A stretch of 64,000 nt of DNA from Patescibacteria group bacterium (GTDB lineage: Bacteria; Patescibacteriota; Microgenomatia; UBA8517). The position numbers and the translations under genes are program-made. This document shows positions 5,630 to 28,526 of the stretch, in pieces. The notes under the pieces were generated by a model. It was not told where the DNA came from. It saw only the letters and a list, made by a program, of their open reading frames with translations, and did not search any database. Numbering within the stretch: the stretch's first letter is position 1; the number at the start of each line of letters is the position of its first letter. The DNA lies in contig JALHYA010000004.1 of NCBI GenBank assembly GCA_022868165.1, forward strand, positions 16,457 to 80,456, read 5' to 3'.

Positions 5630-5638
5630 AACAACAAA

Positions 5639-8203: not shown

Positions 8204-8325
8204 TGTTTATTTTAACACTCCCTCTTTTCAACATACAAACGGCTGTTTGTGAAAAAGGGTTGCTCTTGCGCGGAAGGCTTCACATTGTAACCTAGATTTA
8301 GAGTATCAAAGTACTCCTTTGTTTT

Positions 8326-9423
8326 ATGGAACAACACGCCATACCGCAACAAATATCTTCCTACCAATTCCGGTTGGTGGGAGATATGACCCTCAAGCAG
8401 TTCTTTCAGCTTGCAGGGGGAGCTTTGGTTGCACTTCTTTTCTATGCCGCCCCTCTTCCCGGCTATGTTAAATGGCCTTTTATAATTGTTTCGGCTCTTT
8501 TGGGGGCTGCTCTGGCATTTTTGCCTTTTGAAGAAAGACCGCTGGAGCGATGGATTATTGCTTTCTTTAGAGCCGCCTACTCCCCCACAAGCTTTGTCTG
8601 GCAAGAAACAAAAGCCACGCCCGTGTTTTATCGAGAAGAGGCCAAGGCTCCCACGGAAAAGATAATTGCCCCCGGCGGAGAAGCCGCCTTAAATGCATAT
8701 CTTGCCGCAACTGCCCAACCCCAAGGATTTTTGGGAAAACTAGAACTGGGGGAAAGTGGATTTCTGTCTAAGCTCGGCAAGCTTTTTGGGGCACCCGCGC
8801 CGGTTTCCGCACCGACGGTTGCTGTTCAACCTAGTGTTCCCGTTGCCCCAAGCCCAGCTCCCCTTCCCGCAACCGTGCTGGTTGCCAGACCCCAACAACA
8901 AATTGGGGTAAAGATTCCTACAACTCAATATATTAGAGTTGTTCCTTCGGCAAAACCAAAAATGGTTGTCGAGGAAAAACTAGCCGGCGGTAAGCCAATA
9001 ACCGAAAGGCTGCTTGATATTCAACCCATGGCCGGCCGGGGTTTTGCTCCCGGCGGGAAAGCGGCGCAGTTTTCTCCCGAGGCGGCCCCACCCATTCCGC
9101 CGACCACCCCAAACACCATTGTCGGTCAGGTCCTTGATTCTTCCGGCCGAATTATCGAAGGTGCAATTTTGGAAATTCGCGATGCCGCCGGTCGCCCCGT
9201 ACGAGCTCTTAAAAGCAACAAGGTCGGCCACTTTGTCGTTGTCACCCCATTGCAAAACGGCCGATACGAAATTATTACGGAAAAAGACGGATTTAGTTTT
9301 GACCCTGCAACCTTTGAAGCAACGGGAGAAATAATTCCGCCGATTGCCATTCGCGCCAGAATCAACATCGTCGCCGCCGAACTGCCAACAATCAGCAATC
9401 AGCAATCAACAATCGGCCAATGA
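8326..9423 (+). CDS. PrgI/VirB3-like membrane protein with C-terminal carboxypeptidase-regulatory-like beta-sandwich
   Basis: The N-terminus (IPQQISSYQFRLVGDMTLKQFFQLAGGALVALLFY...PFEERPLERWIIAFFR) has the PrgI-type two-TM layout. The C-terminus IVGQVLDSSGRIIEGAILEIRDAAGRPV...NGRYEIITEKDGF resembles a CarboxypepD_reg fold. Confidence 0.55.
   Translation: MEQHAIPQQISSYQFRLVGDMTLKQFFQLAGGALVALLFYAAPLPGYVKWPFIIVSALLGAALAFLPFEERPLERWIIAFFRAAYSPTSFVWQETKATPVFYREEAKAPTEKIIAPGGEAALNAYLAATAQPQGFLGKLELGESGFLSKLGKLFGAPAPVSAPTVAVQPSVPVAPSPAPLPATVLVARPQQQIGVKIPTTQYIRVVPSAKPKMVVEEKLAGGKPITERLLDIQPMAGRGFAPGGKAAQFSPEAAPPIPPTTPNTIVGQVLDSSGRIIEGAILEIRDAAGRPVRALKSNKVGHFVVVTPLQNGRYEIITEKDGFSFDPATFEATGEIIPPIAIRARINIVAAELPTISNQQSTIGQ
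9389..9416 (+). repeat. tandem heptamer repeat CAATCAG x4 at the CDS junction
   Basis: The units read caatcag|caatcag|caatcaa|caatcgg, flanked by degenerate units ctgccaa and ccaatga. The array ends in the ATGA stop/start overlap at 9420-9423. Confidence 0.85.
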
Positions 9424-10079
9424 AAATCCCTATAATATCAACTCCCGACAAACCCTTGACCGCTTCCAGCCAAGAATTTCTTCCAATTGCGGACATAACC
9501 GACGATATTGTTCTTTATCGGGACGGCGGAGCTGCTTTGATCATGGAGTCCACTTCTCTCAATTTCAGTCTACTCTCTGAAAAGGAACAGGAGGCCGTCA
9601 TTGCTGCCTACGCCGCTTTAATCAACTCCCTTTCCTTTGCGGTCCAGATTGTCGTCAGAACCAAAAGAAAAGATATTACAAGCTATATAAATTATATTGA
9701 CGAAAATGCTCAAAAAATTAGAAATCCTAAATTGGCACAACTGATGCAAGGTTATAAAGCCTTCATTATGGAATCCGTTAAAAAGAAAAATGTCTTGGGC
9801 AAAAAATTTTATATTGTAATTCCGTTTAGCCAACTTGAGCTGGGAGTAACAAAGGCGCTTTTTTCTTCAACCCGCAGAAAAGGTCCTCTTCCTTTCCCCA
9901 AAAGTTACGTTGTCAAAAAAGCCAAGGTGGTTCTTTATCCCAGACGCGACCATTTAATTCGGCAGACAGGACGGCTGGGCATTCGCTTAAAGCAACTCAC
10001 CACCAACGAATTAATTGAACTTTTTTACAGCGTTTTTAATCCTGAAATTCCGACTGTCAAAAAGGAGGAAACCCAATGA
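9420..10079 (+). CDS. T4SS-associated protein resembling the P-loop-less N-terminal domain of VirB4/TraC-type ATPases
   Basis: 219 aa. FLPIADITDDIVLYRDGGAALIMESTSLNFSLLSEKEQEAVIAAYAALINSL has the pattern seen at conjugative ATPase N-termini. ATGA overlaps couple it to both neighbours. Confidence 0.45.
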   Translation: MKIPIISTPDKPLTASSQEFLPIADITDDIVLYRDGGAALIMESTSLNFSLLSEKEQEAVIAAYAALINSLSFAVQIVVRTKRKDITSYINYIDENAQKIRNPKLAQLMQGYKAFIMESVKKKNVLGKKFYIVIPFSQLELGVTKALFSSTRRKGPLPFPKSYVVKKAKVVLYPRRDHLIRQTGRLGIRLKQLTTNELIELFYSVFNPEIPTVKKEETQ

Positions 10080-11803
10080 AGCCCAAAATCCCGAGCGTGC
10101 AGCTTTCGATTGCCCAAAAGCAAAATCTTTTGGATATTATCGCTCCCCAATCTCTCGATATTGATTTCGACTATATAACCCTAAACGGCGTTTTCTTTAG
10201 AACCATTTTTATTGCCGGCTATCCCAGATTTGTTGCTCCGGGCTGGCTCGAGCCGATCGTCAATTTCAACAACTCCCTGGATATTTCCTTCTCTATTTAC
10301 CCGGTCGAGGGTAAAACGGTCCTTGATGATTTACGAAGAAAAATTGCCGAGATGGAGGCCGAAATCGGAACCGACTTGGAAAGAGGAAAAATCGTTGACC
10401 CCTCAACACAGGCAAAACTTGAGGATGCAAGAAACCTGCAGGAACAACTTGTAAAGGGCGCAGAGCGTTTTTATCAGTTTTCTTTCTACATAACAATTCC
10501 GGCTCCGACACTTGAGGAGCTCAATCACATAACCCACCAGGTTGAATCAACTCTCGGTTCGCTCTTGATTGTTTCCAAGCATGCAATTTTGGACATGGAT
10601 TCGGGTTTCCTATCGACTGCCCCCTTTGGTTTAGACAAGCTGGCAATAACAAGAAACATGGACACAACTTCACTTTCCACAACTTTTCCGCTAACAAGCG
10701 CCGAGCTTTCCAGCGACCGCGGAGTCTTGTATGGAATTAATTCCAAAAACGAATCTTTTATTATTTTCGACCGCTTTTCAATGGAAAACAGCAACATGAC
10801 GATTTTCGCTACTTCGGGTGCGGGAAAATCCTACTTCGTAAAACTTGAGGCCTTAAGAAGTCTAATGCTGGGAACGGAAATAATCGTTCTGGACCCGGAA
10901 AGCGAATACAAAAGCCTTTGCGATGCTGTTGGGGGACAATTTATAACTTTTTCTTTCAACTCTCCTTCAAAAATAAATCCGTTTGACCTTTCGCAAATTT
11001 ATGAGGAAGGAGAAAATCAACTGGGACTAAAAATTCTTTCTCTCCACTCTCTATTTAAGGTAATCATGGGCCAGATTACTCCCATACAAGAAGCTCTTTT
11101 GGATAGGTCGTTGGTTGCGACCTACCGGGCCAAGGGAATAACCCAAGACCCTACAACACAGAAAAAAGAGCCGCCTTTAATGGAAGACCTTTATAAAATG
11201 CTTGTGGGAATGGAAACTCCCGAGGCTTTGGACTTGGCCGCAAGGATTGAAAAATTCGTCAGAGGCTCTTTTGTGGGAATCTTTGACAGGCAAACAAATG
11301 TCGATTTGAATAATCCGTTCACCGTTTTTTCTGTCAAAGACCTTCAGGATGTTCTGCGCCCAATCGCAATGTTTGTAATCCTCGATTATGTTTGGACAAG
11401 AGTCAAAAAGGATATTAAAAAGAGGCTTTTAATTGTAGATGAGGCCTGGCACATGATGAAATACCCGGACTCTGCACAATTTTTGTGGTCGGTGGTCAAA
11501 AGGGCCAGAAAATATTATTTGGGTCTTACAACTATCACCCAAGACGTAGAAGACTTTTTGGGTCAGGATATCGGAAAGGCGATAGTTACCAACTCCGCTT
11601 TGCAGCTTCTTCTTAAACAATCGCCTGCGGCTATAGATAAAATTGCCGAAGTTTTTTATTTGTCGCAGGGAGAAAGACAGCTTCTCTTGGCCGCCAACAT
11701 CGGTGAGGGAATCTTCTTTGCCGGTCCTCACCACGCTCCCATTAGGATTGTTGCCTCGGATGCGGAACATAAACTAATATCCACCAAACCCTTAGCAACA
11801 TGA
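10076..11803 (+). CDS. VirB4/TrbE-like type IV secretion ATPase
   Basis: 575 aa with Walker A (FATSGAGKSYF), Walker B (LLIVDEAWHMM), and LGLTTITQDVEDF. Confidence 0.8.
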   Translation: MKPKIPSVQLSIAQKQNLLDIIAPQSLDIDFDYITLNGVFFRTIFIAGYPRFVAPGWLEPIVNFNNSLDISFSIYPVEGKTVLDDLRRKIAEMEAEIGTDLERGKIVDPSTQAKLEDARNLQEQLVKGAERFYQFSFYITIPAPTLEELNHITHQVESTLGSLLIVSKHAILDMDSGFLSTAPFGLDKLAITRNMDTTSLSTTFPLTSAELSSDRGVLYGINSKNESFIIFDRFSMENSNMTIFATSGAGKSYFVKLEALRSLMLGTEIIVLDPESEYKSLCDAVGGQFITFSFNSPSKINPFDLSQIYEEGENQLGLKILSLHSLFKVIMGQITPIQEALLDRSLVATYRAKGITQDPTTQKKEPPLMEDLYKMLVGMETPEALDLAARIEKFVRGSFVGIFDRQTNVDLNNPFTVFSVKDLQDVLRPIAMFVILDYVWTRVKKDIKKRLLIVDEAWHMMKYPDSAQFLWSVVKRARKYYLGLTTITQDVEDFLGQDIGKAIVTNSALQLLLKQSPAAIDKIAEVFYLSQGERQLLLAANIGEGIFFAGPHHAPIRIVASDAEHKLISTKPLAT

Positions 11804-14163
11804 GCCAAGAAGAAGCTCGAAAACTTTTAGATGCATGGGCGTTTTTCGATAAACATCCCGAAGCCAAAAGCTGGGAAGGAATGCCGCGGCCAGAATTTTA
11901 TCGGCTGGTACAAATCATTGCCGGCACTGACAATTTGGTCGATGCCAAGGAATATTTCGAGGGAGTTGCCGCAGGAACCATAACCGGCGACATGCCGACC
12001 GCACTTCTTGAGGCCCAAAAAGAAGGGCAAGATATTTCCACGCGCCTTTCGACTTCCAAAAGTGCTTCGAGAGTCACAAAGGGTTGGTTGGCCAAATTAA
12101 GCACTAAGAGCGCAGAGGAAGTAGCAGAAAAGCAGGTGGCTGCGGCCCAAGTTCGGGCCGTAGTCGAAAGAGCAGAGGAAGAAACTCCCGCACTCAAAGA
12201 GGTTCCAAAGCCTAAAGCAACCAAGACGGTCGTGCCCTCTTCCGCGGAGACCCCGCCCTCGGCACCGGCCACAACACCGTCTACACCCGTTGAGGAAGGC
12301 CTTAGTATAAAAATTTCCAGCGGGGCATTTGGGTCTTTTGAACAAATGGCCGGAAAAGCGGCAGGAACTCCCCTGGCAATAATTTCTATGTTCTCTCCCC
12401 CCAAGAGCTCGATGACTCCCCAAACAAGCGCCGCTGTTTCGAGCGCCCTAAGTCTTTCCCAAGTAGCACAAAGGGCCGAAAAACTTCCTGAGGCGGACAG
12501 AGAGCACATCTTGTCTTTGGTTAACAATCTTAGAAAGGCCGAGTTTTCTTTTGTCCAACAAACCCGGCTTCTTTCCGTTCGAGAAATCACTATTCTCAGC
12601 GGTTCCGAGTTCGGGATGGACCAGGAAAGCATAGTTGCCCTCCTCGGCGGAGGGCGGGGTATTCCCGAAAGAGGCCCTTCTTTCGTTGCTCGGGTAGGAC
12701 AACAGCTTTTCGGCAGCATCGCCAAAAAGGCGGCAAGCAAGGCAATTGCAGGAGCACTAACCAAAGCAGGAATCTCTGTTGCCGGCAAAGCCGTTGCCGG
12801 AGCCGTAGGTCAGGCCGCAATCCCCATTCCCGGAGTCGGTTTTATTGTCGGCCAAATTATCGACTGGATTGCAAATAAAGCAGTGGATCTGGCCTCCCGT
12901 GTAGCTATCTGGATTAAAGAACACGGAAAAGAAGTTGTCGGGGGTCTTTTGATTGGCGGAGGAATCTTAATCGGCGGGTTTGCCGGATTGGCTGCCGGAA
13001 TTGCTGGCGGAGCAATTGCGCTGGGCGGTTCCGGGCTAAGCACAATCGCATCTGGAATTGGGAGTTTCTTTTCATTTATCTTTACCGGAATAATTCTTCC
13101 TTCAATTGGAATTCCGATATTGGTAGCCCTCTTTGCTGTTCCTGCAGTTATTGTAATTATTCTTTTTATTATCAACTCCAGTGCCTATATTGTCCCTCCT
13201 CGGACGGGATTTATAAGCGGAGAAAATCCTTATATAGGCGTAGAAAAAGTAGCCAGCCCCACGGGGCCCTTTAGCAACGACGACCTTTTCAAAACTCCCC
13301 CGATAGTTGTCGAATATACCATCACAATAACGGCGAAAAAGGGTACTCTGACCAATATAAGTTTTGCTTATGACTGCGAGGTTATAAAAAAGGGCTCGAC
13401 AGAGGACTGCCCTAATGCAAATTTAGTCGACTCGCAAGGGAAAGCAATTACAATTGGGCCGCAAGCAAACTTAAGAATCTCTCCGACCGAGCCCTACAAA
13501 ATTACATATCAAGCCCAGTATTCCGGCGGCCGCTTTCAAGACTCTGCAATTATAGATACCCTGACGGTTACCGCGGACGCGGCAGAACAAAACGGGGCGC
13601 AAGCAAGCGGCGGTGCAGCCGTAATAATCGGAAACCCCCCGACCGGCTGTTTCAGGTTTGATGATTCCTGGCCGGCCAATCTAAAGGCAAATGAGGTTAG
13701 AGCAATTACCGAGCTTACAAGGGCCAGTGTATATATGACAAGACTTTGTGCTGCAGGAGAAATTGTTCTGAAATACGGCGGGAACAACGGCGGTGTCGGC
13801 GGAGATGTTATCGCCGGTCCCAACATTATCACCATCTATTCTGCGGGCGTGCAATATGGACCCACAAGCACCCTCTATACCACAACGCACGAATCGGGCC
13901 ACATCTTTGCAAGAAGATATGGAGGAATTTTTAGACAATATGCGGACACGCCTGGCGTTGGCAATGTTCTTATCTGCACTTATCCTTTCAACAACAGCGT
14001 TGGAGAAAGCTTTCCCGAAATGATAGGTCTTTTTGTGGCCAACAGCCCGGGACATGCCCCAATTAATCTCTTCGGCTGTTTGGGTGGAAGTTTTAAAACC
14101 AAATATCCTGCACACTGGCAGTTTGCGCGAAACGTAATTTTTCAGCAAGACCTGGGGTGGTAA
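11800..14163 (+). CDS. membrane protein with Gly/Ala-rich TM core and C-terminal HExxH (putative zinc peptidase) domain
   Basis: 787 aa. The central region (about aa 330-460) is G/A/I-rich helices. The C-terminal domain carries TTTHESGHIFARRYGG. An ATGA overlap joins it to the VirB4-like gene. Confidence 0.6.
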   Translation: MSQEEARKLLDAWAFFDKHPEAKSWEGMPRPEFYRLVQIIAGTDNLVDAKEYFEGVAAGTITGDMPTALLEAQKEGQDISTRLSTSKSASRVTKGWLAKLSTKSAEEVAEKQVAAAQVRAVVERAEEETPALKEVPKPKATKTVVPSSAETPPSAPATTPSTPVEEGLSIKISSGAFGSFEQMAGKAAGTPLAIISMFSPPKSSMTPQTSAAVSSALSLSQVAQRAEKLPEADREHILSLVNNLRKAEFSFVQQTRLLSVREITILSGSEFGMDQESIVALLGGGRGIPERGPSFVARVGQQLFGSIAKKAASKAIAGALTKAGISVAGKAVAGAVGQAAIPIPGVGFIVGQIIDWIANKAVDLASRVAIWIKEHGKEVVGGLLIGGGILIGGFAGLAAGIAGGAIALGGSGLSTIASGIGSFFSFIFTGIILPSIGIPILVALFAVPAVIVIILFIINSSAYIVPPRTGFISGENPYIGVEKVASPTGPFSNDDLFKTPPIVVEYTITITAKKGTLTNISFAYDCEVIKKGSTEDCPNANLVDSQGKAITIGPQANLRISPTEPYKITYQAQYSGGRFQDSAIIDTLTVTADAAEQNGAQASGGAAVIIGNPPTGCFRFDDSWPANLKANEVRAITELTRASVYMTRLCAAGEIVLKYGGNNGGVGGDVIAGPNIITIYSAGVQYGPTSTLYTTTHESGHIFARRYGGIFRQYADTPGVGNVLICTYPFNNSVGESFPEMIGLFVANSPGHAPINLFGCLGGSFKTKYPAHWQFARNVIFQQDLGW

Positions 14164-14164
14164 A

Positions 14165-14737
14165 ATGTTTCGGATGAATAAAAAAATCGTTGTTGTTGGA
14201 ATAATTATTTTTATCTTGCTTTTTGGAGCAATTTTCCTTCTTGGTGCGGGACGTAAAAAAACGCCCACTCCTGTTCCAACTACAACCTCGGGGGTTTCCT
14301 GGCAAGGCCTCGTCGCCGGCAAGAGCACAAAGGACCAGGTCAATGGTGTACTGGGAAACCCTCTCAGTGAAACTTCCTCGGGAAATCAAACTACAAACAC
14401 ATATTCTTCCTTAAGCGAAACCCGACCCAACAGTGCCGTTTTTGACAACAACTCCAATACCGCACTGTTTTTAAGGCAAATCGTTTCCGCTAAAGATACC
14501 AAAACAACAAAAGACATTGTGGATGTGTATGGGGAAACAAACACAAAGCTTTACGGCCTTGATTGGATAAACGGGATTTACCTTTTTGTTTATCTGGACA
14601 AGGGGATTGCATATCTTGCAAACCCGGACAGCAACACCCTATTTGAAGTCTGGTATTTTCCTCCCACAACGCTCGACAATTTCCTAAAGACTTGGGCAAC
14701 CGATTATTCAACTCAACCCAAAAACCAACCCTTCTAG
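14165..14737 (+). CDS. membrane-anchored hypothetical protein
   Basis: 190 aa with an N-terminal TM helix (IVVVGIIIFILLFGAIFLLGA). It starts 2 nt after the preceding stop. Confidence 0.65.
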   Translation: MFRMNKKIVVVGIIIFILLFGAIFLLGAGRKKTPTPVPTTTSGVSWQGLVAGKSTKDQVNGVLGNPLSETSSGNQTTNTYSSLSETRPNSAVFDNNSNTALFLRQIVSAKDTKTTKDIVDVYGETNTKLYGLDWINGIYLFVYLDKGIAYLANPDSNTLFEVWYFPPTTLDNFLKTWATDYSTQPKNQPF

Positions 14738-15852
14738 CCCTGAAGTCTAACCGGCATTATAAGGTGAAGATAGTTGGGGTCTGTGGCTTCCTGAAACACT
14801 CCAGGAGCGGTGGCGGATGAGAAAGTTAGCGTTATGGCATCTCCTACGGCTGACTGCAAGAATTCTTCAACAAATCGATAATTGAATGCAATTTCAAATC
14901 CCTTACTTTCGCCCTCGACCTTTGCATCAACTACCGCCTTCTGGCTTCCGGTTTGGTTACTTTCGGCGCTTAACGAAAGTCCCCCTTTTGAAGTAGCAAA
15001 TCGAATTATGTTTGCCGAGTCTCTGGCAAAAACCGAGGATGTTTTGACCGCCCTTAAAAGTTCCTCTTTGTCCACTCCGACTTTTACTTGTCCTCCTTTG
15101 GGGATTATTTTTTCAAAATCGGGAAAGTCCCCTTCCAAAATTCTTGTCGAAAAAACACAATCCCCCACTTCAAAAACCACCTGACTGTCTTTTTCTTTAT
15201 AGGAAAGGGAGATCTCTTCTGCCTCCGCCGAAAGCCTGGAAATTTCTCCCAAAGCGCTTTTCGGCAAAATAATCTTTTGCGGCTTTCCTCCCCCACCCAA
15301 AGAAATCTTCTTTTGGGAAAGCCTAAACCCGTCGGTTGCAACCATTGTCAAGAATCCTTTCTGAAAAAGAAAAAGAACCCCCGTAAGAATGGGCCTTGTC
15401 TCGTCTACTGATGCCGAAAAAACAACCTGAGAAAGGGCCCGGGAAAATTCTTCTTTGGGTAGAAGTATTGAGTTTTGTTTATCTACGCTCTGAGGAATTG
15501 AAGGAAAGTCCCCGGCGTTCATTCCGGAAATGTTGCTTTCAAAACCCTGTGCCGAAATTTGAATTTTTTCTTTTTCTACGGATAATTCAATTTGTCCCGG
15601 AGGAAGATTGGCTACAAGTTCCGAGATAACCCTTGCCGGTACTGTAATTTCTCCCTCTTTTTGTACCTGTGCCCCTATGGAAATTGCAACCGAAATTTCT
15701 AAATTTGTTGCCAAAATGGAAAGTTTTGTCTTCTTTGCCGAAAGAAAGATATTTCCCAAGACAGGAAGTTGGGCTTTGCTGGAAGTAAATCTTAAGGCCG
15801 TATTAAGGGCTTTGGATAAGTTCTCCTGAAGAACAGTAAGTTTCATTTCCAT
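14734..15852 (-). CDS. dnaN: DNA polymerase III beta sliding clamp
   Basis: 372 aa starting MKLTVLQENLSKALN, with clamp-like three-domain length. It lies directly downstream of dnaA. Confidence 0.9.
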   Translation of the reverse strand: MEMKLTVLQENLSKALNTALRFTSSKAQLPVLGNIFLSAKKTKLSILATNLEISVAISIGAQVQKEGEITVPARVISELVANLPPGQIELSVEKEKIQISAQGFESNISGMNAGDFPSIPQSVDKQNSILLPKEEFSRALSQVVFSASVDETRPILTGVLFLFQKGFLTMVATDGFRLSQKKISLGGGGKPQKIILPKSALGEISRLSAEAEEISLSYKEKDSQVVFEVGDCVFSTRILEGDFPDFEKIIPKGGQVKVGVDKEELLRAVKTSSVFARDSANIIRFATSKGGLSLSAESNQTGSQKAVVDAKVEGESKGFEIAFNYRFVEEFLQSAVGDAITLTFSSATAPGVFQEATDPNYLHLIMPVRLQG

Positions 15853-15893
15853 GAGTATATAAAAAGGTTCTCAAAACACAAGTCGTACTTTTG

Positions 15894-16006
15894 ATTATGA
15901 CAGCATTCAAAAAACCGTGAGTGCAAGCTCTCAAATGAATTGAATGCTGACATGTCATCCTTCAAAACAAAAAAGCCTCAACTGTAAGATCGTAGAAGGA
16001 TGTCAT
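15894..16006 (-). repeat. promoter-proximal structured repeat, copy a (upstream of dnaN)
   Basis: The minus strand reads atgacatccttc-N33-gaaggatgacat-gtcagcattcaattcat-hairpin-tttttt-gaatgctgtcataat. It is collinear with the copies at 17887 and 47742. Confidence 0.75.
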
Positions 16007-16033
16007 TAAAATAGTCGTGATAGTAGTAGGTGA

Positions 16034-16176: not shown

Positions 16177-17538
16177 TCAAAGCCTCTGTTTTATCCCCAA
16201 GATATCCTGGCGGATTTGCACATCGGTCGAAGCCATCTGGGTTATTTTGTCCACAGCGTGCATTACGGTAGTATGATCTCTTCCTCCCACAAGCCTCCCA
16301 ACTTCTTCCAGAGGAAGCCCCAGGTCCCTTCGAAGTAAATACATCAGTATCTGCCGGGGTCTGGCGACGGGCCTTGCTCTGGAATCTCCAAGAAGGGAAC
16401 GTTTTCCTAAGGAGAAGTGTTTGGACACCGCGGAGATGACGTTTTCCGGATTAACCCTTTTTGTTTGCAAAGCTTGCGACTCCCCCTTACCGAGAAGTGA
16501 CTGAATAAGCTCTTCGGTTATTTGTGTATTTTTTAGTTTCGCTTCAGAAGAAAGCCTTACCAAAAACCCTTCAAGCTTTCGGGCTGAGTCGGTGTTGGCT
16601 GCAATAAGCTGAACCAATTCCATAGGAAGCTCTATTCCCCTACCGGCCGCCTTTATCTGCAAAATCGCACAGCGCAACTCAAAATCCGGGGGCGCAATGT
16701 CAACAATTAATCCCGCCTCAAAACGGCTTCTTAATCTTTCCTCGAGTTTTGATATTTCGGAAGGGGGCCTGTCGGAGGTTAAAATAATTTGACCCCCGGC
16801 GCTGGTTACGGCGTTGAATGTGTGGAAGAATTCTTCCTGCACTGCGTCCTTGCCAGCAATAAACTGAATGTCGTCTATTAAAAGGGCATCAAGTTTGCGG
16901 TATTTGTTTCTGAAAGATTGTGTCGTTTTGTTTCTTATTCCCTCCACGATGTCGTTGGTAAAATCTTCTCCGGTACAAAAAAGAACGTTTGGGTTGGGAT
17001 TTTTGCTTAAGATTTCATACCCGACAGCAATCATTAAATGGGTTTTCCCAACCCCAACGCCTCCCCAAATAAAAAGAGGGTTATATGCGCTCCCCGGAGT
17101 TTTTGAAACCGCGTCAGCCGCAGCCCACGCCATTTGATTGGAAGAAGAGACGGCAAAGTTTTCGAAAGTAAACCCCTGTCTAATCCTTGCCCTAGCTAGC
17201 GCCGTAGAAAGCACTTCCAAAGATTCCTTTTCCTGATTAAACAAAGGGGCGAGAGAGTTTTCGATTGCTTTTGTTTTTGGCGCCTGTTTTACTACAAAGA
17301 GGATGTCGCAGGGCTTCCCCAACTGTTTTGTCAAGCTGTCTTGAATCAGTCCAAAATATCTCGACTCAATGGTTGTCTTAACAAAAGGGGAATTGCAACC
17401 GACCTGTGCGGTTGCCCGATCGTTTATGTCGGCAAGATCTATTAGGTGGGTTTGGGAAAACCATGTAGAGAAAATTGCGGGGGAGACTGCAACCTTTATA
17501 CTCTCAAGGACATCGTGCCAGAGTCTATTTGCATCCAT
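16177..17538 (-). CDS. dnaA: chromosomal replication initiator DnaA
   Basis: 453 aa with Walker A GGVGVGKTHL, Walker B LLIDDIQF, and a C-terminal DNA-binding region (...GGRDHTTVMHAVDKI). Confidence 0.95.
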   Translation of the reverse strand: MDANRLWHDVLESIKVAVSPAIFSTWFSQTHLIDLADINDRATAQVGCNSPFVKTTIESRYFGLIQDSLTKQLGKPCDILFVVKQAPKTKAIENSLAPLFNQEKESLEVLSTALARARIRQGFTFENFAVSSSNQMAWAAADAVSKTPGSAYNPLFIWGGVGVGKTHLMIAVGYEILSKNPNPNVLFCTGEDFTNDIVEGIRNKTTQSFRNKYRKLDALLIDDIQFIAGKDAVQEEFFHTFNAVTSAGGQIILTSDRPPSEISKLEERLRSRFEAGLIVDIAPPDFELRCAILQIKAAGRGIELPMELVQLIAANTDSARKLEGFLVRLSSEAKLKNTQITEELIQSLLGKGESQALQTKRVNPENVISAVSKHFSLGKRSLLGDSRARPVARPRQILMYLLRRDLGLPLEEVGRLVGGRDHTTVMHAVDKITQMASTDVQIRQDILGIKQRL

Positions 17539-17592: not shown

Positions 17593-17825
17593 AGTCAAAA
17601 AGTCTCAGTTTTGTTATCCCTCGAGCTTTGTCGTAAACGCATTTTCAAAAAATGCTCGTCGGGTGTAGCACAAAGAAGATTGCAAATCTCACTCCTCGCT
17701 TGACGTTTCACCAGTCGGAATTTCTCTTACGAGATACAACATCCTTTTTATGACTGGTTCGACACATTTTTGAAAATGGTTTCCTCGCGCTCTCGGGGCA
17801 AACAAAGACTTTGGTAGAATTTTCC

Positions 17826-17854: not shown

Positions 17855-17884
17855 CTGGAGACTGGAAAATGGAGATTGGAAACT
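17855..17884 (+). repeat. heptamer array (GGAGACT/GGAAAAT type)
   Basis: The sequence reads ctggagactggaaaatggagattggaaact, with a clear 7-nt period (ggagact|ggaaaat|ggagatt|ggaaact). It abuts structured repeat copy b. Confidence 0.6.
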
Positions 17885-17886
17885 TT

Positions 17887-17999
17887 ATGACATCCTCCCC
17901 GCTCCAAAGAGCGGGGTTTCCCTCCAAAGGAGGATGACATATCGGCGTTCAATTCATCTCCGCAACAAATTGCGGAGCGTTCTTGAATGCTGTTATAAT
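17887..17999 (+). repeat. promoter-proximal structured repeat, copy b (upstream of rpmH), ending in the extended -10 TGTTATAAT
   Basis: The sequence is atgacatcctcc-ccgctccaaagagcggggtttccctccaaa-ggaggatgacat-atcggcgttcaattcat-ctccgcaacaaattgcggag-cgttc-ttgaatgctgttataat. TATAAT (17994-17999) lies 6 nt before the rpmH ATG. Confidence 0.8.
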
Positions 18000-18005
18000 A
18001 CCCCT

Positions 18006-18146
18006 ATGTCAACAAAAAGAACCTATCAACCGAAGAAAAGGAAAAGAGCAAAAACTCACGGATTTCGTGCGAGAGTTAAGTCCGCTTCCGGCCGCAGGGT
18101 CCTTAAAAGAAGGCGCCAAAAAGGCCGAAAAAGGCTGACTCCATAA
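18006..18146 (+). CDS. rpmH: 50S ribosomal protein L34
   Basis: 46 aa: [46 protein letters not shown]. The ORF-track entry 17811..18146 is an in-frame read-through of the upstream repeat, so I moved the start to ATG 18006. Confidence 0.9.
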
Positions 18147-20035: not shown

Positions 20036-21225
20036 TGAGGTTCCTCGAAAAGATTTTCTTTTTCCTACTTATCTTTTTTCTTCCAACACAAATAGGCTTA
20101 CACCTTTGGCCAAACTGGTCTTTTGTCGCCGGAATTAGGGTCGATTATCTTTCCCCGACAATTTATTTAACGGATTTATTAATTCTGGGGATTTTACTAA
20201 CCTCACTAGTCAATCTCGGGTGGTATAAAAAGAGGAAATTCCTGGTTGTTGTGGCCGGCCTTTTGGTTTTCGCCATCATAAATTCATTGCGGGCGTTAAA
20301 TCCCTTGGTATCAATATTAAAGTGGGGGAAAGTTTTGGAGCTGACACTCTTGGCTTATTATATAATTGCTTCAAACCGCGAGAGAGTAAAGACACTAATA
20401 CTTAAGGCTCTCCCGTTTTCGATTGTAACCTTTGCCCTAATTGGGTTTTTACAGATTATTTTCCAAAAAACATTGGGCGGTCCTTTATATTATTTGGGAG
20501 AGAGAAGTTTCTCTGCGACCACCCCCGGCATCGCGCTTTACAACATTTTCGGGAAACTTCTTCTTAGGCCCTATTCAACCTTTCCTCACCCCAATGTTTT
20601 TGGCGCTTATATGTTTGTGGCAACATTAATATTTGTTGTTTTGAAAAGCAAAAAGTCCAGGTCGGACTATTTAGTTGTTCTAATTGGATTTTTGGCGTCT
20701 TTCTTGTCCGGGTCTTTAGCTGTTTATCTTGGAACAGTTGTTGTTTTATCCCTAAAATTTTTAGGAAAGAGTAGGGAAAAGCTAACAAAACTTATTCCGG
20801 CGGGGGCAATTCTTCTAAGCTTTGCTTTTTTGTTTCTCTCTCCACAACTTCTTTCGCAAAAATTTCCTGAAAGCATAGAAAAAAGAATTCTCTTGGCGAG
20901 AGCATCCGCAACCATGGTCTCAAAGTCGCCGTTATTGGGGGTAGGATTTAACAATTTTATCGTAAACCTTCCGGCCTATGCGGCAAAAGATTCTTCTTTG
21001 TGGATACTCCAACCGGTACACAATATTTTTCTTCTAACTTTTGTCGAGACAGGGATATTTGGCTTGTTATTGTTGGGATATTTATTTCAAAGGACATTAT
21101 CGAAAACATCCCCGCTAGCTTTAGCAATAGTTTTTGTTATCGTGACGGGAATGTTCGACCACTACTGGCTTACTCTCCAGCAACCCCAAATTTTGTTCGC
21201 TCTTTTGATCGGACTCCTGTGGTAA
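20035..21225 (+). CDS. O-antigen ligase (Wzy_C)-like polytopic membrane protein
   Basis: 396 aa with about 10 TM helices and a late HNIFLLTFVETGIFGLLLL segment typical of the family. Confidence 0.55.
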   Translation: MRFLEKIFFFLLIFFLPTQIGLHLWPNWSFVAGIRVDYLSPTIYLTDLLILGILLTSLVNLGWYKKRKFLVVVAGLLVFAIINSLRALNPLVSILKWGKVLELTLLAYYIIASNRERVKTLILKALPFSIVTFALIGFLQIIFQKTLGGPLYYLGERSFSATTPGIALYNIFGKLLLRPYSTFPHPNVFGAYMFVATLIFVVLKSKKSRSDYLVVLIGFLASFLSGSLAVYLGTVVVLSLKFLGKSREKLTKLIPAGAILLSFAFLFLSPQLLSQKFPESIEKRILLARASATMVSKSPLLGVGFNNFIVNLPAYAAKDSSLWILQPVHNIFLLTFVETGIFGLLLLGYLFQRTLSKTSPLALAIVFVIVTGMFDHYWLTLQQPQILFALLIGLLW

Positions 21226-21237
21226 ACTAGCAAGACA

Positions 21238-21657
21238 ATGGAGAGCAAACTTTCGATTTATTCCGACGGAGGAGCAAGGGGGAATCCCGGGCCCGCAGCC
21301 TGCGGCGTAGTTTTTTCAAAAGACGGTAAAGTAGTTTTTAAAGGCTCAAAATTTTTAGGAGAAACTACAAATAACGTTGCAGAATATCGCGGAGTAATTT
21401 TTGCCTTGGAAACGCTTTCAAAAAACCGTGAGTGGAGTGCAGATGCACCTGTAGATTTATTTCTGGACTCAGAACTAATAGCTCATCAGCTAAACGGAAA
21501 ATACAAAATTAAAAATCAACTGTTGGCAACGCTTTCTTTTGAAGTAAAAAAGTTGGAAAAACACCTTTCGACAAAAATTATTTATCAACACATTCCCCGG
21601 TCCAAAAATTCTATCGCGGATTTTCTGGTTAATGAAGAATTGGACAAACATCAGTGA
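21238..21657 (+). CDS. rnhA: ribonuclease H (type 1)
   Basis: 139 aa with the catalytic D/E/D pattern: YSDGGARGNPGPAA...NNVAEY...FLDSELI...SIADFLVNE. Confidence 0.8.
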   Translation: MESKLSIYSDGGARGNPGPAACGVVFSKDGKVVFKGSKFLGETTNNVAEYRGVIFALETLSKNREWSADAPVDLFLDSELIAHQLNGKYKIKNQLLATLSFEVKKLEKHLSTKIIYQHIPRSKNSIADFLVNEELDKHQ

Positions 21658-21720: not shown

Positions 21721-24462
21721 TTGCGGAGATTGGCCTACGATAAGTCTACAATGAAGAGCTCGAGTAGTCCCTCTTTTGTGATAAGCAACAGACCTGCAGT
21801 TTCTGTCTTTGCCGATTTTGATGTTTTACCACTTAGCTTATTGGAAAAACTTCTTGCCAATTTTTGCAAGGTAAAAATATTTTCAGAAGATATCATGGCT
21901 TGGCAGGAAAAAACATTGCATCTTGGACACGCGAGATACTTTAGTTTTGCAAGCTATAGTGCTTTTTCTGAACTAAAGGGGTCCTCTTACGTGATTTATG
22001 TGAATCTTTACCCCGAGAATCTGGCCAGGGAGGAAAGAATAATTAAAGAAATAATAAAGTATTCTTCCGAAAACTTTGAAAAGGCAATTTTTGTTCTCCC
22101 CTATTTTTTAGAAACCGAAGAGCAGAAAAAACTTTGCACTTTTGTTAAGACTCAAATTGGAAAAGAGGAAAATTTTGAGCTTATTTATGTTGGACAAATT
22201 TTTTCTCCAAGGATGGTATTAAAAAGAGGGATTCTGCTCCATGAAATGTTAAGCGATTTGGAAAGAGGCTCCCGCCTAAAAATTCCCGACAACAATTTTG
22301 AAGTTTATCCAACCTTCGCAGTTGATGTTGCAAGAGAAGTCGTTAAGTCTTTGTTTTCTTTCGGATATTTTGGGCAGGAGGTATCAATGTACTCTGCAAA
22401 AACTACTTTTGATAATTTTGTTAAATATCTCGCCAGATTAAGACAAACCGAAAGCCCTATTGAAGCCGGAACTAAATATGTCAGGGCACCGGGGGTCGAC
22501 AAAGAAATTCATATTGCAAAAAATCTTGAAAGTTTTGTGCCCGACACTGTCGAATGGTTTCAGCAAAACCCCGGCGAAGTTCTTCCTCAAATCAAACCCA
22601 GAGAAGCTAGTAGGGTTAAAGAGGCGGCAGTTAAAGTTTCCTTCCCCAGAATTAAAAGAATATTGACCAACCCCATGTTTGTTTGGGGTGGGGGGTTGGT
22701 AGTTGGTTTCCTTCTGCTGCCGTTTTTGATGCTGATAATTAGCATTCTCAGCTTAGTCATTTTCGGGAAAACATTTGTAACCGGAAAACTTGTTTTGGCC
22801 GAAAGCGCAGCGGGGTTTGTTGGTGTCACGGCCAATTTGGCAAACAAAGAGTCGGGGTTTCTTATGCAAATCCCTCTTTTGGGAATGCCATACAAGGAGA
22901 CGGCTTCTTTGGGAAATATAATTGAAGATTCTTCTGTTATTGCCAAGCGGGCCGTATCAATAGCAAAACAAGGCAAAAGCCTTGTAAAAAACATTTTAGG
23001 AAAAGATTCTTATAACTTAAGTGGCGCATCCGAGTCCTTGGGGCTGGATTTGGATGTTCTCTATAAAGACTTGGGGTTTCTCCAGGGAGAGATCAACGAC
23101 CTAATGCCGATTAGCGCAAGGCTTGTGGCGCCGCTAACCGCACGCATAGATTTGGGCCAACTAAAAGAACGGCTCTTTTTTGGCAAAACCGCTGTCGATA
23201 ACTTACCCGATCTTTTGGGTGCGGACAAACAGAAAAGTTATCTAGTTCTTTTGCAAAACAATATGGAGCTTAGGCCAACCGGGGGATTTATCGGCTCATA
23301 CGCCCTTTTAACATTTGACCAAGGAAAATTGGTTGATACAAACGTCTCCGATATTTACTCTGCAGACGGGCAACTTCAGGGGCATGTTGAACCGCCGGCT
23401 CCTATTAAAAAATACCTGGGAGAAGCGAATTGGTATTTAAGAGACTCTAATTGGGATCCGGACTTTCCAACCTCGGCAACCCGCGCGGAATGGTTTTTGG
23501 GAAAAGAAATCAACAAATCCGTCGATGGAGTTATCGGAATTGACCTCGAGTTTATCAAGGGTCTAATTAAGGTAACCGGGCCAATTACGCTTTCCGATTT
23601 CAATCAAACGATTGGTTCGTCCGACCTTTACGAAAAAACCCAAACCCAGGTCGAAAAAGATTTTTTTCCGGGATCTCAGAAAAAGACAAATTACCTCACG
23701 GCACTTACCCGAACACTTTTGACGAATTTGGAAAATCCTTCGGATTCATTAATCTTGGGATTTTCAAAAGAAACATTCGCAGCCCTTAACGCAAGGCATA
23801 TCCAGGTATTTGTACATAACCGCGACGTACAAAACGCATTGTCAAACATCGGTTGGGATGGCGCAGTCAATCAGCCGACTTGCGAAGGCAACTGTTATCC
23901 TGATTGGGTTGGAATAGTTGATGCAAATGTGGGCGTAAATAAGGCAAATTACTATATAGGGAGAGAATCGTCTTTGGGGGTTAGATTTGACAACGACAAT
24001 ATTACCAGAGAGTTAACAATTAATTATAAAAATAGCGCGAATACAGTACTTGGAGCCGGAGCAAAATATAAAAATTATGTAAGAATCCTAGCCCCAAAAG
24101 GAGCCGACTTTGCAGACGTGCAAGTGACAATTGGAGACAAAACACAAACGATAAAGCCCGAAATTAACGACACACAGGGAAGAAGAGAAGCCGGTGTTTT
24201 GATAGAAATCCCTGCGGGGGCTAAAGCCTCGGCTAAGTTTGTTTGGCAAACTCCACTGGGCATCTCTTTCGGTCAGCCCGGAGAGTACAGACTCTATGTA
24301 CGCAAACAGGCAGGAACAATTGCAGACACAATAACCTTGAAGTTTTCTTTTCCCGAGGGGGTTGTCGCAAAAACCAGCCCAAAGCCTACCTTGACCGTCG
24401 AGGGAAGCCTCGAGTATAATACGACTCTGGCTGGCGATTTATTTGCGCTCAGCCGCTGGTAG
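21721..24462 (+). CDS. DUF4012 domain membrane protein (start uncertain)
   Basis: 913 aa with a TM helix near aa 320-350 and LLQNNMELRPTGGFIGSYALLTF, characteristic of DUF4012. The 21721 start is non-ATG, and ATG 21751 (MKSSSS...) is an alternative. Confidence 0.65.
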   Translation: MRRLAYDKSTMKSSSSPSFVISNRPAVSVFADFDVLPLSLLEKLLANFCKVKIFSEDIMAWQEKTLHLGHARYFSFASYSAFSELKGSSYVIYVNLYPENLAREERIIKEIIKYSSENFEKAIFVLPYFLETEEQKKLCTFVKTQIGKEENFELIYVGQIFSPRMVLKRGILLHEMLSDLERGSRLKIPDNNFEVYPTFAVDVAREVVKSLFSFGYFGQEVSMYSAKTTFDNFVKYLARLRQTESPIEAGTKYVRAPGVDKEIHIAKNLESFVPDTVEWFQQNPGEVLPQIKPREASRVKEAAVKVSFPRIKRILTNPMFVWGGGLVVGFLLLPFLMLIISILSLVIFGKTFVTGKLVLAESAAGFVGVTANLANKESGFLMQIPLLGMPYKETASLGNIIEDSSVIAKRAVSIAKQGKSLVKNILGKDSYNLSGASESLGLDLDVLYKDLGFLQGEINDLMPISARLVAPLTARIDLGQLKERLFFGKTAVDNLPDLLGADKQKSYLVLLQNNMELRPTGGFIGSYALLTFDQGKLVDTNVSDIYSADGQLQGHVEPPAPIKKYLGEANWYLRDSNWDPDFPTSATRAEWFLGKEINKSVDGVIGIDLEFIKGLIKVTGPITLSDFNQTIGSSDLYEKTQTQVEKDFFPGSQKKTNYLTALTRTLLTNLENPSDSLILGFSKETFAALNARHIQVFVHNRDVQNALSNIGWDGAVNQPTCEGNCYPDWVGIVDANVGVNKANYYIGRESSLGVRFDNDNITRELTINYKNSANTVLGAGAKYKNYVRILAPKGADFADVQVTIGDKTQTIKPEINDTQGRREAGVLIEIPAGAKASAKFVWQTPLGISFGQPGEYRLYVRKQAGTIADTITLKFSFPEGVVAKTSPKPTLTVEGSLEYNTTLAGDLFALSRW

Positions 24463-24466: not shown

Positions 24467-25174
24467 ATGGACAAAATAACTTTAGCGGCAGAAAAAAGAA
24501 GTGTTGTTGGTAGAAAAGTAAAAACTTTAAGAAAAGAAGGGTATTTGCCAGCAAACGTTTTCGGAAAAGGAATTAAATCCGAATCTTTGCAGGTAAAACT
24601 TTCCGACTTTCAAGATACCTATAAAAAGGTTGGAGAAACTGGACTTCTTTACCTTTCTATCAAAAACGGAAAAGTTGAAGAAAAACCCGTGTTGGTTTCC
24701 AATGTCCAACTTCAGCCCGTATCCGACACTCCCATTCATGTAGATTTCCACCAGGTTGATCTTAAGGAGAAAGTTACGGCTGCGGTTCCCGTAGAGATTA
24801 GCGGGGAAGCGCCGGCGGAAAAAGGAGGAATAGGCACTGTCGTTCAATATATCGACGAAATCGAGGTCGAGGCACTTCCGACCGATCTTCCCGAGAAGTT
24901 TATTTTAGATATCTCAAATTTGACCGAAGTGGACCAGGCGATTTTTGTCAAAGATTTACCGGTCGATAAGGCAAAGGTTGACATTAAGACGGATGCCGAA
25001 GGGATTATTGCTAAAGTAGAACCTCCTCAAAAGGAAGAGGTTGCACCTGTCGCTGAGGTTCCCGTAGAGGGAGCAGTTCCGGCGGAAGGAGCTCCTGAGG
25101 GTGTTGTGCCGGCCGAGGGAGAAGCTCCGGCCGCGGAAGAAAATGAGCCCCAAGAAAAAAAGCCTAAGGAGTAG
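24467..25174 (+). CDS. rplY: 50S ribosomal protein L25/general stress protein Ctc
   Basis: Starts MDKITLAAEKRSVVGRKVKTLRKEGYLPANVFGKG and has an acidic Pro/Glu/Ala-rich tail. I moved the start from 24443 to ATG 24467. Confidence 0.85.
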   Translation: MDKITLAAEKRSVVGRKVKTLRKEGYLPANVFGKGIKSESLQVKLSDFQDTYKKVGETGLLYLSIKNGKVEEKPVLVSNVQLQPVSDTPIHVDFHQVDLKEKVTAAVPVEISGEAPAEKGGIGTVVQYIDEIEVEALPTDLPEKFILDISNLTEVDQAIFVKDLPVDKAKVDIKTDAEGIIAKVEPPQKEEVAPVAEVPVEGAVPAEGAPEGVVPAEGEAPAAEENEPQEKKPKE

Positions 25175-25547
25175 TATTTAAGGCGCTTTCCAAATTTCTG
25201 ACTTCGCTTGAGTTCGGATCTATTTCCTTGGCGCGATCGAGATATGAAAGTGCGGCCTTATTGTCTCCGGACTTTATCTCGAGTTTTGCCAATTCCACCC
25301 ATCCTGACAAATAATTTGGGTACTTTGCTACGAGATTTTGCCAATAGAGAATTTCCTCTTGGGTTGTGGCCCTTTGACTGCTTGTCCCAAGAACCTTCCT
25401 ATTTAAAAAGAAGCTAGCGTTAAAAGTCGAAAGCGAAAAAATTATTATTGCCGCGCAACAGGAGCATAAAAACACGACTTCTTTGCTGAATTTGAGACGC
25501 AATTTCTTTTTCGATTTTTTTGGGGGTTGCTGGACAGGTTCTTTCAT
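25164..25547 (-). CDS. membrane-anchored TPR-repeat protein
   Basis: Starts MKEPVQQPPKKSKKK, then a TM helix, then TPR-like YWQNLVAKYPNYLSGWVELAKLEIKSGDNKAALSYLDRAKEIDP. The ORF-track 5' extension to 25787 is antisense to the neighbouring Pro-rich gene. Confidence 0.55.
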   Translation of the reverse strand: MKEPVQQPPKKSKKKLRLKFSKEVVFLCSCCAAIIIFSLSTFNASFFLNRKVLGTSSQRATTQEEILYWQNLVAKYPNYLSGWVELAKLEIKSGDNKAALSYLDRAKEIDPNSSEVRNLESALNTTP

Positions 25548-25566
25548 GCTGTATAATAAATTAATT

Positions 25567-26361
25567 ATGGATGACAACCTGCCGAATCCGCAAGGGGATA
25601 CCCAGAACCTTGCCAAAATGACAACTCCACCTACTGGAACACCTCCCATACCTCCAACCACGCCGGCTCCTTCTGCGTCGGTCTTAACTCCGACACCAAC
25701 CCCGCCGCCGACCCCCCCAGTGCCTAGTGCCTCAAAGCCTAATTTGATGCTTTGGATTTCTTTGGGAATTTTGGCGTTGGCCGCCATTGCGGGCGGAGCA
25801 TATTATTTCCTCAAGGGAACCTCGACAAAGCCAGTACCCACGCCGGTACCCGTTGCCCCAACTCCAATCCCAACCCCGGTAGATAGAACCACCGGTTGGC
25901 TGACTTATACAAACACAAAGAATAATTTTTCTTTCAAATATCGCCCGGACGCCAAGGTTCAGGAGCAAACAGACGGAACAATAAATCTTACCCTTTTGGG
26001 ACCGACTCAAAAAACAGGAACCGAATTTTTCGACGGACTAAACATGACTTTTAAGCCGGGAAGTCTAGGAGGCTTAACGCTTAAAACCTTTGTCGACAAA
26101 AAAATGACTGTGCTTTCCACTGAGGGGGTTGTTTCGGCGACAACCAGCGCAACCATAGCCCAAATGGTAGGGTATAAATTCCATTTGGAGACCATTGTGC
26201 CCTCCGATTATTATTATCTTCCCTTGGGAACGACTTCATACTTGGAAATTGTTGATTTGACCAGAGACCCTTCAAGCCAAGGTTTTGAGCAAAACGCCCA
26301 AGACACGCTCTCGACTATTACGTTTGGTGTAGCTAGCCCATCGGCAACTCCCGCGATTTAA
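25567..26361 (+). CDS. Pro-rich membrane-anchored hypothetical protein
   Basis: Starts MDDNLPNPQ, with a TPPxP-rich N-terminus, a TM helix (LMLWISLGILALAAIAGGAYYF) and an extracytoplasmic domain. TATAAT (25552-25557) lies 9 nt upstream of the ATG. Confidence 0.6.
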   Translation: MDDNLPNPQGDTQNLAKMTTPPTGTPPIPPTTPAPSASVLTPTPTPPPTPPVPSASKPNLMLWISLGILALAAIAGGAYYFLKGTSTKPVPTPVPVAPTPIPTPVDRTTGWLTYTNTKNNFSFKYRPDAKVQEQTDGTINLTLLGPTQKTGTEFFDGLNMTFKPGSLGGLTLKTFVDKKMTVLSTEGVVSATTSATIAQMVGYKFHLETIVPSDYYYLPLGTTSYLEIVDLTRDPSSQGFEQNAQDTLSTITFGVASPSATPAI

Positions 26362-28511: not shown

Positions 28512-28526
28512 GCTGATGCTATTATA

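Follow-up and report, generated by a model that had tools for sequence, protein, structure and literature searches.

Promoter −10 boxes adjoining start codons point to leaderless or near-leaderless mRNAs in a 64-kb Patescibacteria sequence

Introduction

Genomes of GeneMarkS-2 group C carry a Pribnow box 6–8 nt before the first genes of operons, and 25–50% of their operons are predicted to be leaderless; the group consists mainly of Actinobacteria (e.g., Mycobacterium tuberculosis) and Deinococcus-Thermus (e.g., D. deserti) (PMC6028130). For the candidate phyla radiation (CPR), Tsurumaki et al. described the loss of the anti-Shine-Dalgarno motif in approximately half of the Parcubacteria, and leaderless genes are not discussed there (PMC9297842). 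The only CPR set of transcription start sites cited, that of TM7x, comprises 188 sites from RNA-seq and is described as imprecise. No paper linking leaderless mRNAs to CPR/Patescibacteria was found in the literature searched. Here, we describe a 64,000-nt stretch of a Patescibacteria contig (JALHYA010000004.1, positions 16,457–80,456; hereafter the window), in which hexamers of the −10 type stand 6–9 nt before the start codons of numerous genes and would probably give rise to mRNAs with leaders of only 0–3 nt.

The window has a G+C content of about 44% (A+T 56%) and contains dnaA (16177–17538, minus strand), dnaN, and the cluster rpmH-rnpA-yidD-yidC. Its DnaA is at most 51% identical to that of any species representative, with Candidatus Amesbacteria as the top match, followed by other Patescibacteria, and the organism is therefore a CPR bacterium, probably of the Microgenomates type. 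The tRNA genes in the window are tRNA-Thr and tRNA-Cys only, and no rRNA gene was found in it.

Materials and Methods

Genes were called with a simple codon-usage model, and the motif-blind start rule took the first ATG of each open reading frame (ORF). A −10 box was counted when a hexamer matched TATAAT in at least five of six positions, with A2 and T6 required, at a spacer of 6–9 nt from the start codon; under the relaxed criterion, TAnnnT with four of six matches was also counted. Shine-Dalgarno (SD) sequences were scored as SD-like 4-mers at spacers of 4–12 nt. Additional candidates were obtained from inspection of all upstream regions and from a listing of all TGnTAnnnT sites. The gene calls of a public 19.9-kb contig, identical over part of the window, served as an independent annotation, and the starts of rpmH, RNase H, tsaD, the valS-like synthetase, and dnaN were checked by Pfam alignment.

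Control loci were dnaA loci from Firmicutes, Chloroflexi, and the CPR (22 loci), processed by the same pipeline as the window. Relatives comprised 80 loci (L082–L161) with 859 unique gene starts, retrieved by a metagenome scan with the valS-like protein at 52–81% identity; L084, L087, and L088 stem from Hainich groundwater datasets.

Results

Excess of −10 boxes in front of start codons

The original prediction listed eight genes with a −10 hexamer 6–9 nt before the ATG and no SD in the spacer. All eight combinations of hexamer, spacer, and ATG were reproduced base for base in the sequence, and GGAG, GAGG, AGGA, and AAGG are absent from the 20 nt upstream of all eight genes. With motif-blind starts, a box is located at a spacer of 6–9 nt in 10 of the 57 genes of the window, compared with 24 of 1380 other ATGs (1.7%; Fisher 2.7e-7), and exact TATAAT at the same spacers precedes 4 of the 57 genes and 4 of the 1380 other ATGs. 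Shuffles of each gene's own 40 upstream bases gave a mean of 1.81, and none of 1000 shuffles reached the ten observed; hence, local A/T richness is not the explanation. For exact TATAAT, the shuffle expectation is 0.16 against the four observed. With curated starts, a five-of-six box is present in 17 of 61 genes, against 2.1 expected.

The spacer profile of the window peaks at 6–10 nt and is near zero further out, except for a second hump at 19–24 nt, which represents short-leadered genes such as dnaA, orf188, and orf117. Among the 859 starts of the relatives, the profile peaks at spacers 6 (54 starts), 7 (32), and 9 (27) over a background of about 8. The comparison of box-to-start distances with shuffled controls, which had been proposed as a genome-wide check, comes out in favour of the pattern for the window, and the profile is also peaked in the 80 relatives.

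Chance matches of an A/T-rich hexamer in A/T-rich DNA, combined with start codons chosen to fit, would be the simplest explanation. The genome is 56% A+T, loose hexamers (TAnnnT, four of six) occur at 4.5 of 57 genes in shuffles, the pilin and ASCH sites are individually weak, and some starts were picked with the motif known. Set against this are the motif-blind count given above, the co-occurrence of TGn with the boxes, the conservation of the pattern by orthologues, and Firmicutes loci in which the pattern is missing (see below). For the whole set, the chance reading is already refuted, its probability being very small.

Promoter character of the hexamers

The TGn of extended −10 promoters precedes the box in 11 of 22 candidates, whereas only 6.4% of the 1381 window hexamers of this class have it (p 5e-9); candidates were not selected for TG, which served solely as a tie-break between equal-match hexamers of one gene. 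In the relatives, TGn accompanies 22 of the 54 boxes at spacer 6. Elements of the −35 type are recognisable 16–17 nt upstream of the box at the Adk, Tat lipoprotein, PEGA/SH3, orf187, and DUF4012 genes. Furthermore, three divergent gene pairs have start codons 19, 36, and 49 nt apart (25547/25567, 59268/59305, and 40835/40885), and each gene has its own box within the gap; two leadered transcripts are hard to fit into gaps of 19–49 nt.

Predicted transcription start and choice of start codon

At the canonical distance, transcription begins at the seventh base after the −10 box (PMC12641261). In the spacer-6 class of the relatives (n = 83), 81% of starts have a pyrimidine directly in front of the ATG and 51% a C, compared with C in 15% of motif-free genes (Fisher 3e-9). 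Judged from this composition, the usual Y(−1)R(+1) start-site signature falls exactly on the A of the ATG, and rpmH, Adk, tsaD, and NUDIX, all with 6-nt spacers, would be truly leaderless. In the spacer-9 class (n = 44), the seventh base after the box is a purine in 75%; therefore, the start probably stays 7 nt from the box, with a leader of about 3 nt. The Pro-rich, RNase H, valS, and ASCH genes have A at the seventh base and are predicted to begin ANN-AUG, and orf135 has C at this position, its ATG providing the first purine. For 9-nt spacers, a leader of about 3 nt thus appears more likely than a 5'-terminal AUG; at spacers of 6 and 9 alike, no room is left for an SD. The proposal that a substantial share of the transcription units is leaderless is supported by these sequence tests, provided that it is widened to leaders of 0–3 nt, with those of the spacer-9 genes at about 3 nt.

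The motif was also expected to help in choosing among alternative start codons, and this holds for dnaN: the Pfam profile position 1 aligns with Met 15846 and the N-termini of the orthologues read MKLQVLQE, both backing ATG 15846 and not 15852 of the public call. The public gene call makes dnaN two codons too long and omits rpmH. For the latter, position 1 of the Pfam L34 profile lies at residue 68 of the long ORF, two residues past Met 18006. An extra in-frame ATG inside or touching the spacer occurs in dnaN (15846/15852), metG (58517/58523), and orf111 (59268/59274); these upstream ATGs, taken by the longest-ORF and public calls, are probably outside the transcript. Start codons are ATG in 21 of the 22 candidates and GTG in one; the candidates of the relatives comprise 112 ATG and 6 GTG.

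Lineage and gene specificity

In the Firmicutes loci (541 genes), 1.8% of genes have a −10 box at spacer 6–9 and 52.9% have an SD at spacer 4–12; the corresponding values are 4.2% and 31.7% in the Chloroflexi loci (167 genes), 14.8% (peaking at spacers 6, 7, and 8) and 21.2% in the 22 CPR loci (325 genes), and 17.5% and 3.5% in the window (57 genes). The rpmH orthologues of 12 CPR loci, from Amesbacteria (Microgenomates), Paceibacteria, and Saccharibacteria, possess a −10 box, usually TGn-extended, 6–9 nt before the ATG, and every Firmicutes locus has GGAGGTG in this position.

Among the orthologues of the relatives, TAnnnT at spacer 6–9 is found in 18 of 23 rpmH genes (78%), 9 of 15 DUF4012 genes (60%), 44% of RNase H genes (conserved TGnTAAACT), and 42% of valS genes, with a further 21% of the latter at spacer 10–12 (33 of 53 for 6–12). 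The values are 4% for rnpA, 0% for yidD, and 11% for yidC, all operon-internal, and 13% for L25, which is leadered in the window by a promoter 46 nt upstream. These four genes are at the shuffle expectation, which argues against a general translation signal. Under the stricter five-of-six threshold, the RNase H box had appeared unconserved; this was rejected, since the conserved TGnTAAACT is seen in the sequences and the relaxed test agrees. TGnTAAACT or TGnTAGACT recurs in the RNase H orthologues at spacers 6–11. In numerous relatives (L083, L085, L090, L095, L100, L113, L117, and L120), the valS box lies 11–13 nt from the ATG, which implies leaders of 4–7 nt without SD, and the clade appears to tolerate varied very short leaders.

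These orthologue counts bear on a second explanation, in which the hexamer would act as a non-SD signal, either binding the ribosome or serving as an enhancer, on mRNAs that have leaders and are often polycistronic; the model would be genomes of the Bacteroidetes-type "group B". Since neither the window nor the clade makes any real use of the SD, another initiation signal is needed; in addition, the motif is found in 12% of genes that follow a short same-strand gap, and several boxes lie 10–15 nt after a stop codon. However, group B motifs precede first and internal genes alike (PMC6028130), whereas here rnpA, yidD, yidC, and L25 remain at shuffle level and rpmH, valS, RNase H, and DUF4012 reach 42–78%. 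The invariant T-12, A-11, and T-7 with TG one base upstream correspond to the sigma contact pattern of RNA polymerase, and the Y(−1)R(+1) signature at the seventh base after the box is likewise at odds with a ribosome-binding role. A non-SD element of this type is quite improbable.

Shine-Dalgarno usage and genes without a box

SD-like words are at background in the window (2 of 57 genes), where their spacer profile is flat, as it is in the relatives. The missing SD is not special to the boxed genes; the whole window lacks it, with one clear SD, AAGGAGG, 7 nt before ATG 10076. The 16S rRNA 3' end was sought in the fetched loci and found in none of the CPR loci, the sole match being in a Firmicutes locus (L041). 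The motif-free genes have a mildly A-rich, G-poor stretch at −9 to −1, and many of them share 4 nt with the preceding gene, so that translational coupling could operate. In groES (45381–45450), a near-consensus promoter (TTGACA, 18 nt, TAAAAT) is followed by a 40-nt leader with a CIRCE-like inverted repeat/hairpin (GCTGTTGGTATTTGCTAACAGT), and the mRNA is leadered and probably HrcA-regulated. Therefore, leadered mRNAs coexist with leaderless ones in this genome.

Individual sites

In addition to the eight sites noted first, about 13 further sites were found (Table 1).

Table 1. Candidate −10 boxes adjoining start codons and copies of the structured element in the window; the first eight rows are the sites noted first, and −35-like elements are given with their distance where listed.
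Feature	Positions	Strand	Box (positions)	Spacer (nt)	Start codon	Remark
rpmH	17994–18008	+	TGT-TATAAT (17994–17999)	6	ATG 18006	spacer ACCCCT
Adk-GTP cyclohydrolase II fusion	37689–37703	+	TATAAT (37689–37694)	6	ATG 37701	
T4SS-pilin-like gene	1327–1342	+	TAAACT (1327–1332)	7	ATG 1340	without TGn
Tat-signal lipoprotein	29119–29135	+	TTGATT, 17 nt, TGG-TACAAT (29119–29124)	8	ATG 29133	
rmuC	59291–59307	+	TGA-TACAAT (59291–59296)	8	ATG 59305	
Pro-rich membrane protein	25552–25569	+	TATAAT (25552–25557)	9	ATG 25567	
orf135 (ORF 47860)	47845–47862	+	TGT-TATAAT (47845–47850)	9	ATG 47860	
RNase H	21223–21240	+	TGG-TAAACT (21223–21228)	9	ATG 21238	
tsaD	40833–40847	−	TATAAT (40842–40847)	6	ATG 40835	Pfam TsaD match
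orf174	40872–40887	+	TGC-TAAAAT	7	ATG 40885	back to back with tsaD box, 49-nt gap
valS-like tRNA synthetase	28509–28526	−	TGA-TATAAT	9	ATG 28511	
NUDIX hydrolase	28941–28955	−	TATAAT	6	ATG 28943	
orf853	8198–8214	−	TGT-TAAAAT	8	ATG 8200	
dnaN	15844–15859	−	TATACT	7	ATG 15846	in-frame ATG 15852 inside spacer
metG	58515–58529	−	TAAAAT	6	ATG 58517	ambiguous
orf111	59266–59280	−	TAAAAT	6	ATG 59268	second in-frame ATG
ASCH-domain gene	63546–63563	−	TAGAAT	9	ATG 63548	
PEGA/SH3 protein	49340–49356	+	TTGTCA, 17 nt, TGC-TACACT	8	GTG 49354	only GTG-start candidate
orf187	14161–14176	+	TGG-TAAAAT	7	ATG 14174	box spans stop codon of upstream gene
DUF4012 protein	21736–21753	+	TTGAAA, 17 nt, TACGAT	9	ATG 21751	
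orf103	47730–47744	−	TGT-CATAAT	6	ATG 47732	doubtful
Structured element	17881–17993	−				covariance model
Structured element	47736–47844	−				covariance model
Structured element	15900–16012	+				covariance model
Structured element	52257–52412	+				covariance model

The box of the Adk-GTP cyclohydrolase II gene stands immediately after the stop codon of the upstream gene, with a −35-like TTGAAG 17 nt upstream, and ATG 37713 is a possible alternative start; no orthologue was present among the fetched loci. In Pfam, the ORF (37701–38978) shows an adenylate-kinase domain (residues 8–194) fused to GTP cyclohydrolase II (GTP_cyclohydro2, residues 236–397), a combination that, to our knowledge, is not described elsewhere. 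The pilin box is weak when taken alone (four of six matches), and TAAACT recurs as a −10 variant in the clade. The translation of the Tat lipoprotein carries RRDFLK and LAGC motifs, and the closest relative (L082) has an identical box and spacing. The rmuC box is located within a 36-nt gap facing a divergent gene, and the TAA of the RNase H box doubles as the stop codon of the preceding gene.

The Pro-rich box lies within a 19-nt gap facing a divergent TPR gene with a likely start at 25547, and is kept in L082 with one spacer change. The 207-aa ORF 25164–25787 (minus strand) was considered as a competitor of the Pro-rich gene and rejected, its N-terminal 80 residues being a Gly-rich antisense of that gene. 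This ORF encodes a genuine transmembrane and TPR protein only from about Met 25547, which is probably its start. The TPR gene and the Pro-rich gene (25567–26361, plus strand) diverge from the gap with overlapping TATAAT and TATTAT boxes.

Among the further sites, the N-terminus of TsaD (MKILGIETSCDE), which we take to be the usual one for this protein, starts at the first start codon of the ORF. In metG, the in-frame ATG 58523 abuts the box, and an upstream GAAGG is a possible weak SD for it. The ASCH gene overlaps the upstream gene by 4 nt; therefore, its box would be an internal promoter or a chance match. The box of orf103 is situated inside the 3' tail of the structured element described below, which makes this ORF and its "promoter" doubtful; its coding score is low and it has no Pfam match. 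A perfect extended −10 (TGATATAAT) with a 7-nt spacer and ATG 5411 (5395–5413) lies within and in frame with orf561 (3944–5629), and could act as an internal promoter for a leaderless 72-aa C-terminal product of orf561.

A structured repeat element beside some boxes

The rpmH and orf135 boxes are directly preceded by a multi-copy repeat of approximately 110 nt. A covariance model built from four copies detects four in the window (Table 1) and others in L090 (four copies), L094, L110, and L111. The element contains two conserved ATGACAT boxes and GTTCAATTCAT, and its hairpins vary with compensatory changes, which occur in 31 of 34 pairs; 92.8% of cells are paired, compared with 35–44% in slid controls. 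The alignment used was fitted to the model, which biases it towards the structure. Folding stability is very high (z about −7), and the wobble pairs speak for the strand opposite the gene. The Rfam family HgcC (RF00062) gave 34.3 and 32.6 bits (E ~1e-6), below its gathering score of 50, again on the strand opposite to the neighbouring gene; the match spans the full model length with a 24-nt deletion. In every window copy, the 5' end predicted by the model lies directly against the −10 box or start codon of the divergently oriented gene (rpmH, orf135, dnaN, and orf360), in a head-to-head arrangement that is also seen at valS in L090 and L094.

In-frame extensions of 24 codons upstream of rpmH and orf135 (ATG 17934 and 47788, each after AAAGGAGG) were rejected as true N-termini: the stretch is the structured repeat, no spacer separates the SD from the ATG, and the L34 profile begins only at 18006. 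In orf135, the in-frame stretch 47788–47859 is a copy of the element and therefore not coding. On the plus strand, approximately 60 nt upstream of the element in the dnaA-rpmH gap, an orphan extended −10 box (TGGTAGAAT, 17812–17820) has no start codon nearby.

For rpmH and orf135 only, TATAAT might instead, as its near-palindromic complement TATTAT, serve the divergent structured RNA, and the mRNA would originate at another promoter further upstream, for example TGGTAGAAT at 17812. The covarying element abuts the box in the four window copies, at rpmH and orf135 with its modelled 5' end 1 nt away, and both the strand preference of the wobble pairs and the orphan extended −10 box are consistent with such an arrangement. 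On the other hand, the box before rpmH is kept in most relatives and in other CPR phyla, while pattern and covariance searches, in which the rpmH flanks were not checked singly, place the element at gene starts only by valS (L090 and L094) and at the rpmH of no relative. Moreover, ribosomes would find no binding site in a 185-nt leader that ends with ACCCCT-ATG. This reassignment of the two boxes is unlikely; both uses of the box are compatible, and it could function as a bidirectional promoter.

Other content of the window

A cluster at 132–14737 may represent a type IV secretion or conjugation-like system: it encodes T4SS-pilin-like small proteins, a TraC-like protein, a VirB4/TraG-like ATPase, and large unknown ORFs. 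It also includes a gene (865–1230, minus strand) for a 23S-rRNA-intervening-sequence protein.

Discussion

The motif, its excess over chance, its association with TGn, its lineage and gene specificity, and the base composition near the predicted start are features of the DNA itself; from these, we infer the transcription start sites and the mode of translation. The hexamers would be sigma-70-type −10 boxes, often extended by TGn and with a weak −35, from which RNA polymerase would start about 7 nt downstream, on the A of the ATG at spacer 6 or 1–3 nt earlier at spacers 7–9. An SD would have no room in the resulting mRNAs, and translation would depend on an AUG being recognised at or near the 5' terminus, the mode known from Actinobacteria and Deinococcus. 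This design would apply to about one quarter of the genes in the window and to at most about half of the transcription units, the remaining genes being leadered or operon-internal, also without SD. We regard it as likely that −10 boxes 6–9 nt from the AUG give mRNAs with leaders of 0–3 nt.

Several observations weigh against this interpretation. The −35 elements are mostly poor, a weakness that is expected for extended −10 promoters, and a two-hexamer −35/−10 consensus scan was not above shuffles (28 vs 23.9, 36 vs 32.0, and 34 vs 28.9), such a scan being too unspecific for promoters that are mostly −35-independent. Under the relaxed criterion, the contrast between first genes of units (16 of 34 with a box, 47%) and internal genes (6 of 27, 22%) is weak (p 0.06), and in the relatives, grouped by intergenic gap, first-type genes reach 18–22% against 12% for short same-strand gaps. 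The boxes of Adk, RNase H, valS, and orf187 touch an upstream stop codon only 10–15 nt away. Spacers of 9–13 nt are common in the valS orthologues, and a strict 5'-terminal AUG is not always kept. Finally, part of the curated starts were picked with the motif known (ORF 47860, Pro-rich, and rmuC), which leaves the motif-blind statistics unaffected, and the counts from the relatives are not phylogenetically independent.

More speculatively, initiation in the whole clade may be essentially without SD: approximately half of the units would be leaderless or have leaders of 1–3 nt (sometimes up to 7 nt), with A-rich unstructured leaders or coupling serving the others, a regime not yet described for the CPR and possibly tied to their reduced ribosomes. 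Moreover, the near-palindromic −10 box would link some promoters head to head with an HgcC-like structured RNA present in several copies, and the two would together make up a bidirectional promoter cassette that can be reused. This extended proposal is tentative, and we hold it to be possible but rather doubtful. For annotation, gene finders tuned to the SD misplace starts in such genomes, and start calls in thousands of metagenome-assembled CPR genomes would benefit from the −10/ATG rule. If true, a large uncultured radiation with stripped-down ribosomes would join the lineages using 5'-end-dependent, SD-independent initiation, which bears on the evolution of translation initiation and on the choice of expression signals for CPR gene and tool engineering.

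Compared with known promoters, the candidates resemble extended −10 sigma-70 promoters, with TG one base before TAnnnT in half of the cases and a weak or absent −35; the promoter itself is ordinary, and only its position relative to the start codon stands out. The archaeal leaderless genes of group D likewise combine a fixed short promoter–start distance with no SD, but their TATA box is located approximately 22–26 nt upstream, whereas a bacterial −10 box at 6–9 nt is used here. The non-SD groups B and X of Bacteroidetes and Cyanobacteria also have hardly any SD, and the motif-free genes of the window, A-rich and G-poor before the ATG, are similar to theirs; however, a promoter box adjoining the start codon is not a hallmark of either group. 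The closest likeness is to group C, with which the window shares the spacer peak, a similar predicted leaderless share, the missing SD on those genes, and the AUG starts. The two also differ: in group C, the remaining genes use the SD in a dual model, whereas here SD words are at background before genes of every kind; the present bacterium is a low-GC member of the Patescibacteria and not a high-GC actinobacterium; and spacers of 9–13 nt are also enriched, suggesting many leaders of 3–7 nt. The window thus appears to represent a known kind of system, the leaderless architecture of group C, in a lineage that is new for it.

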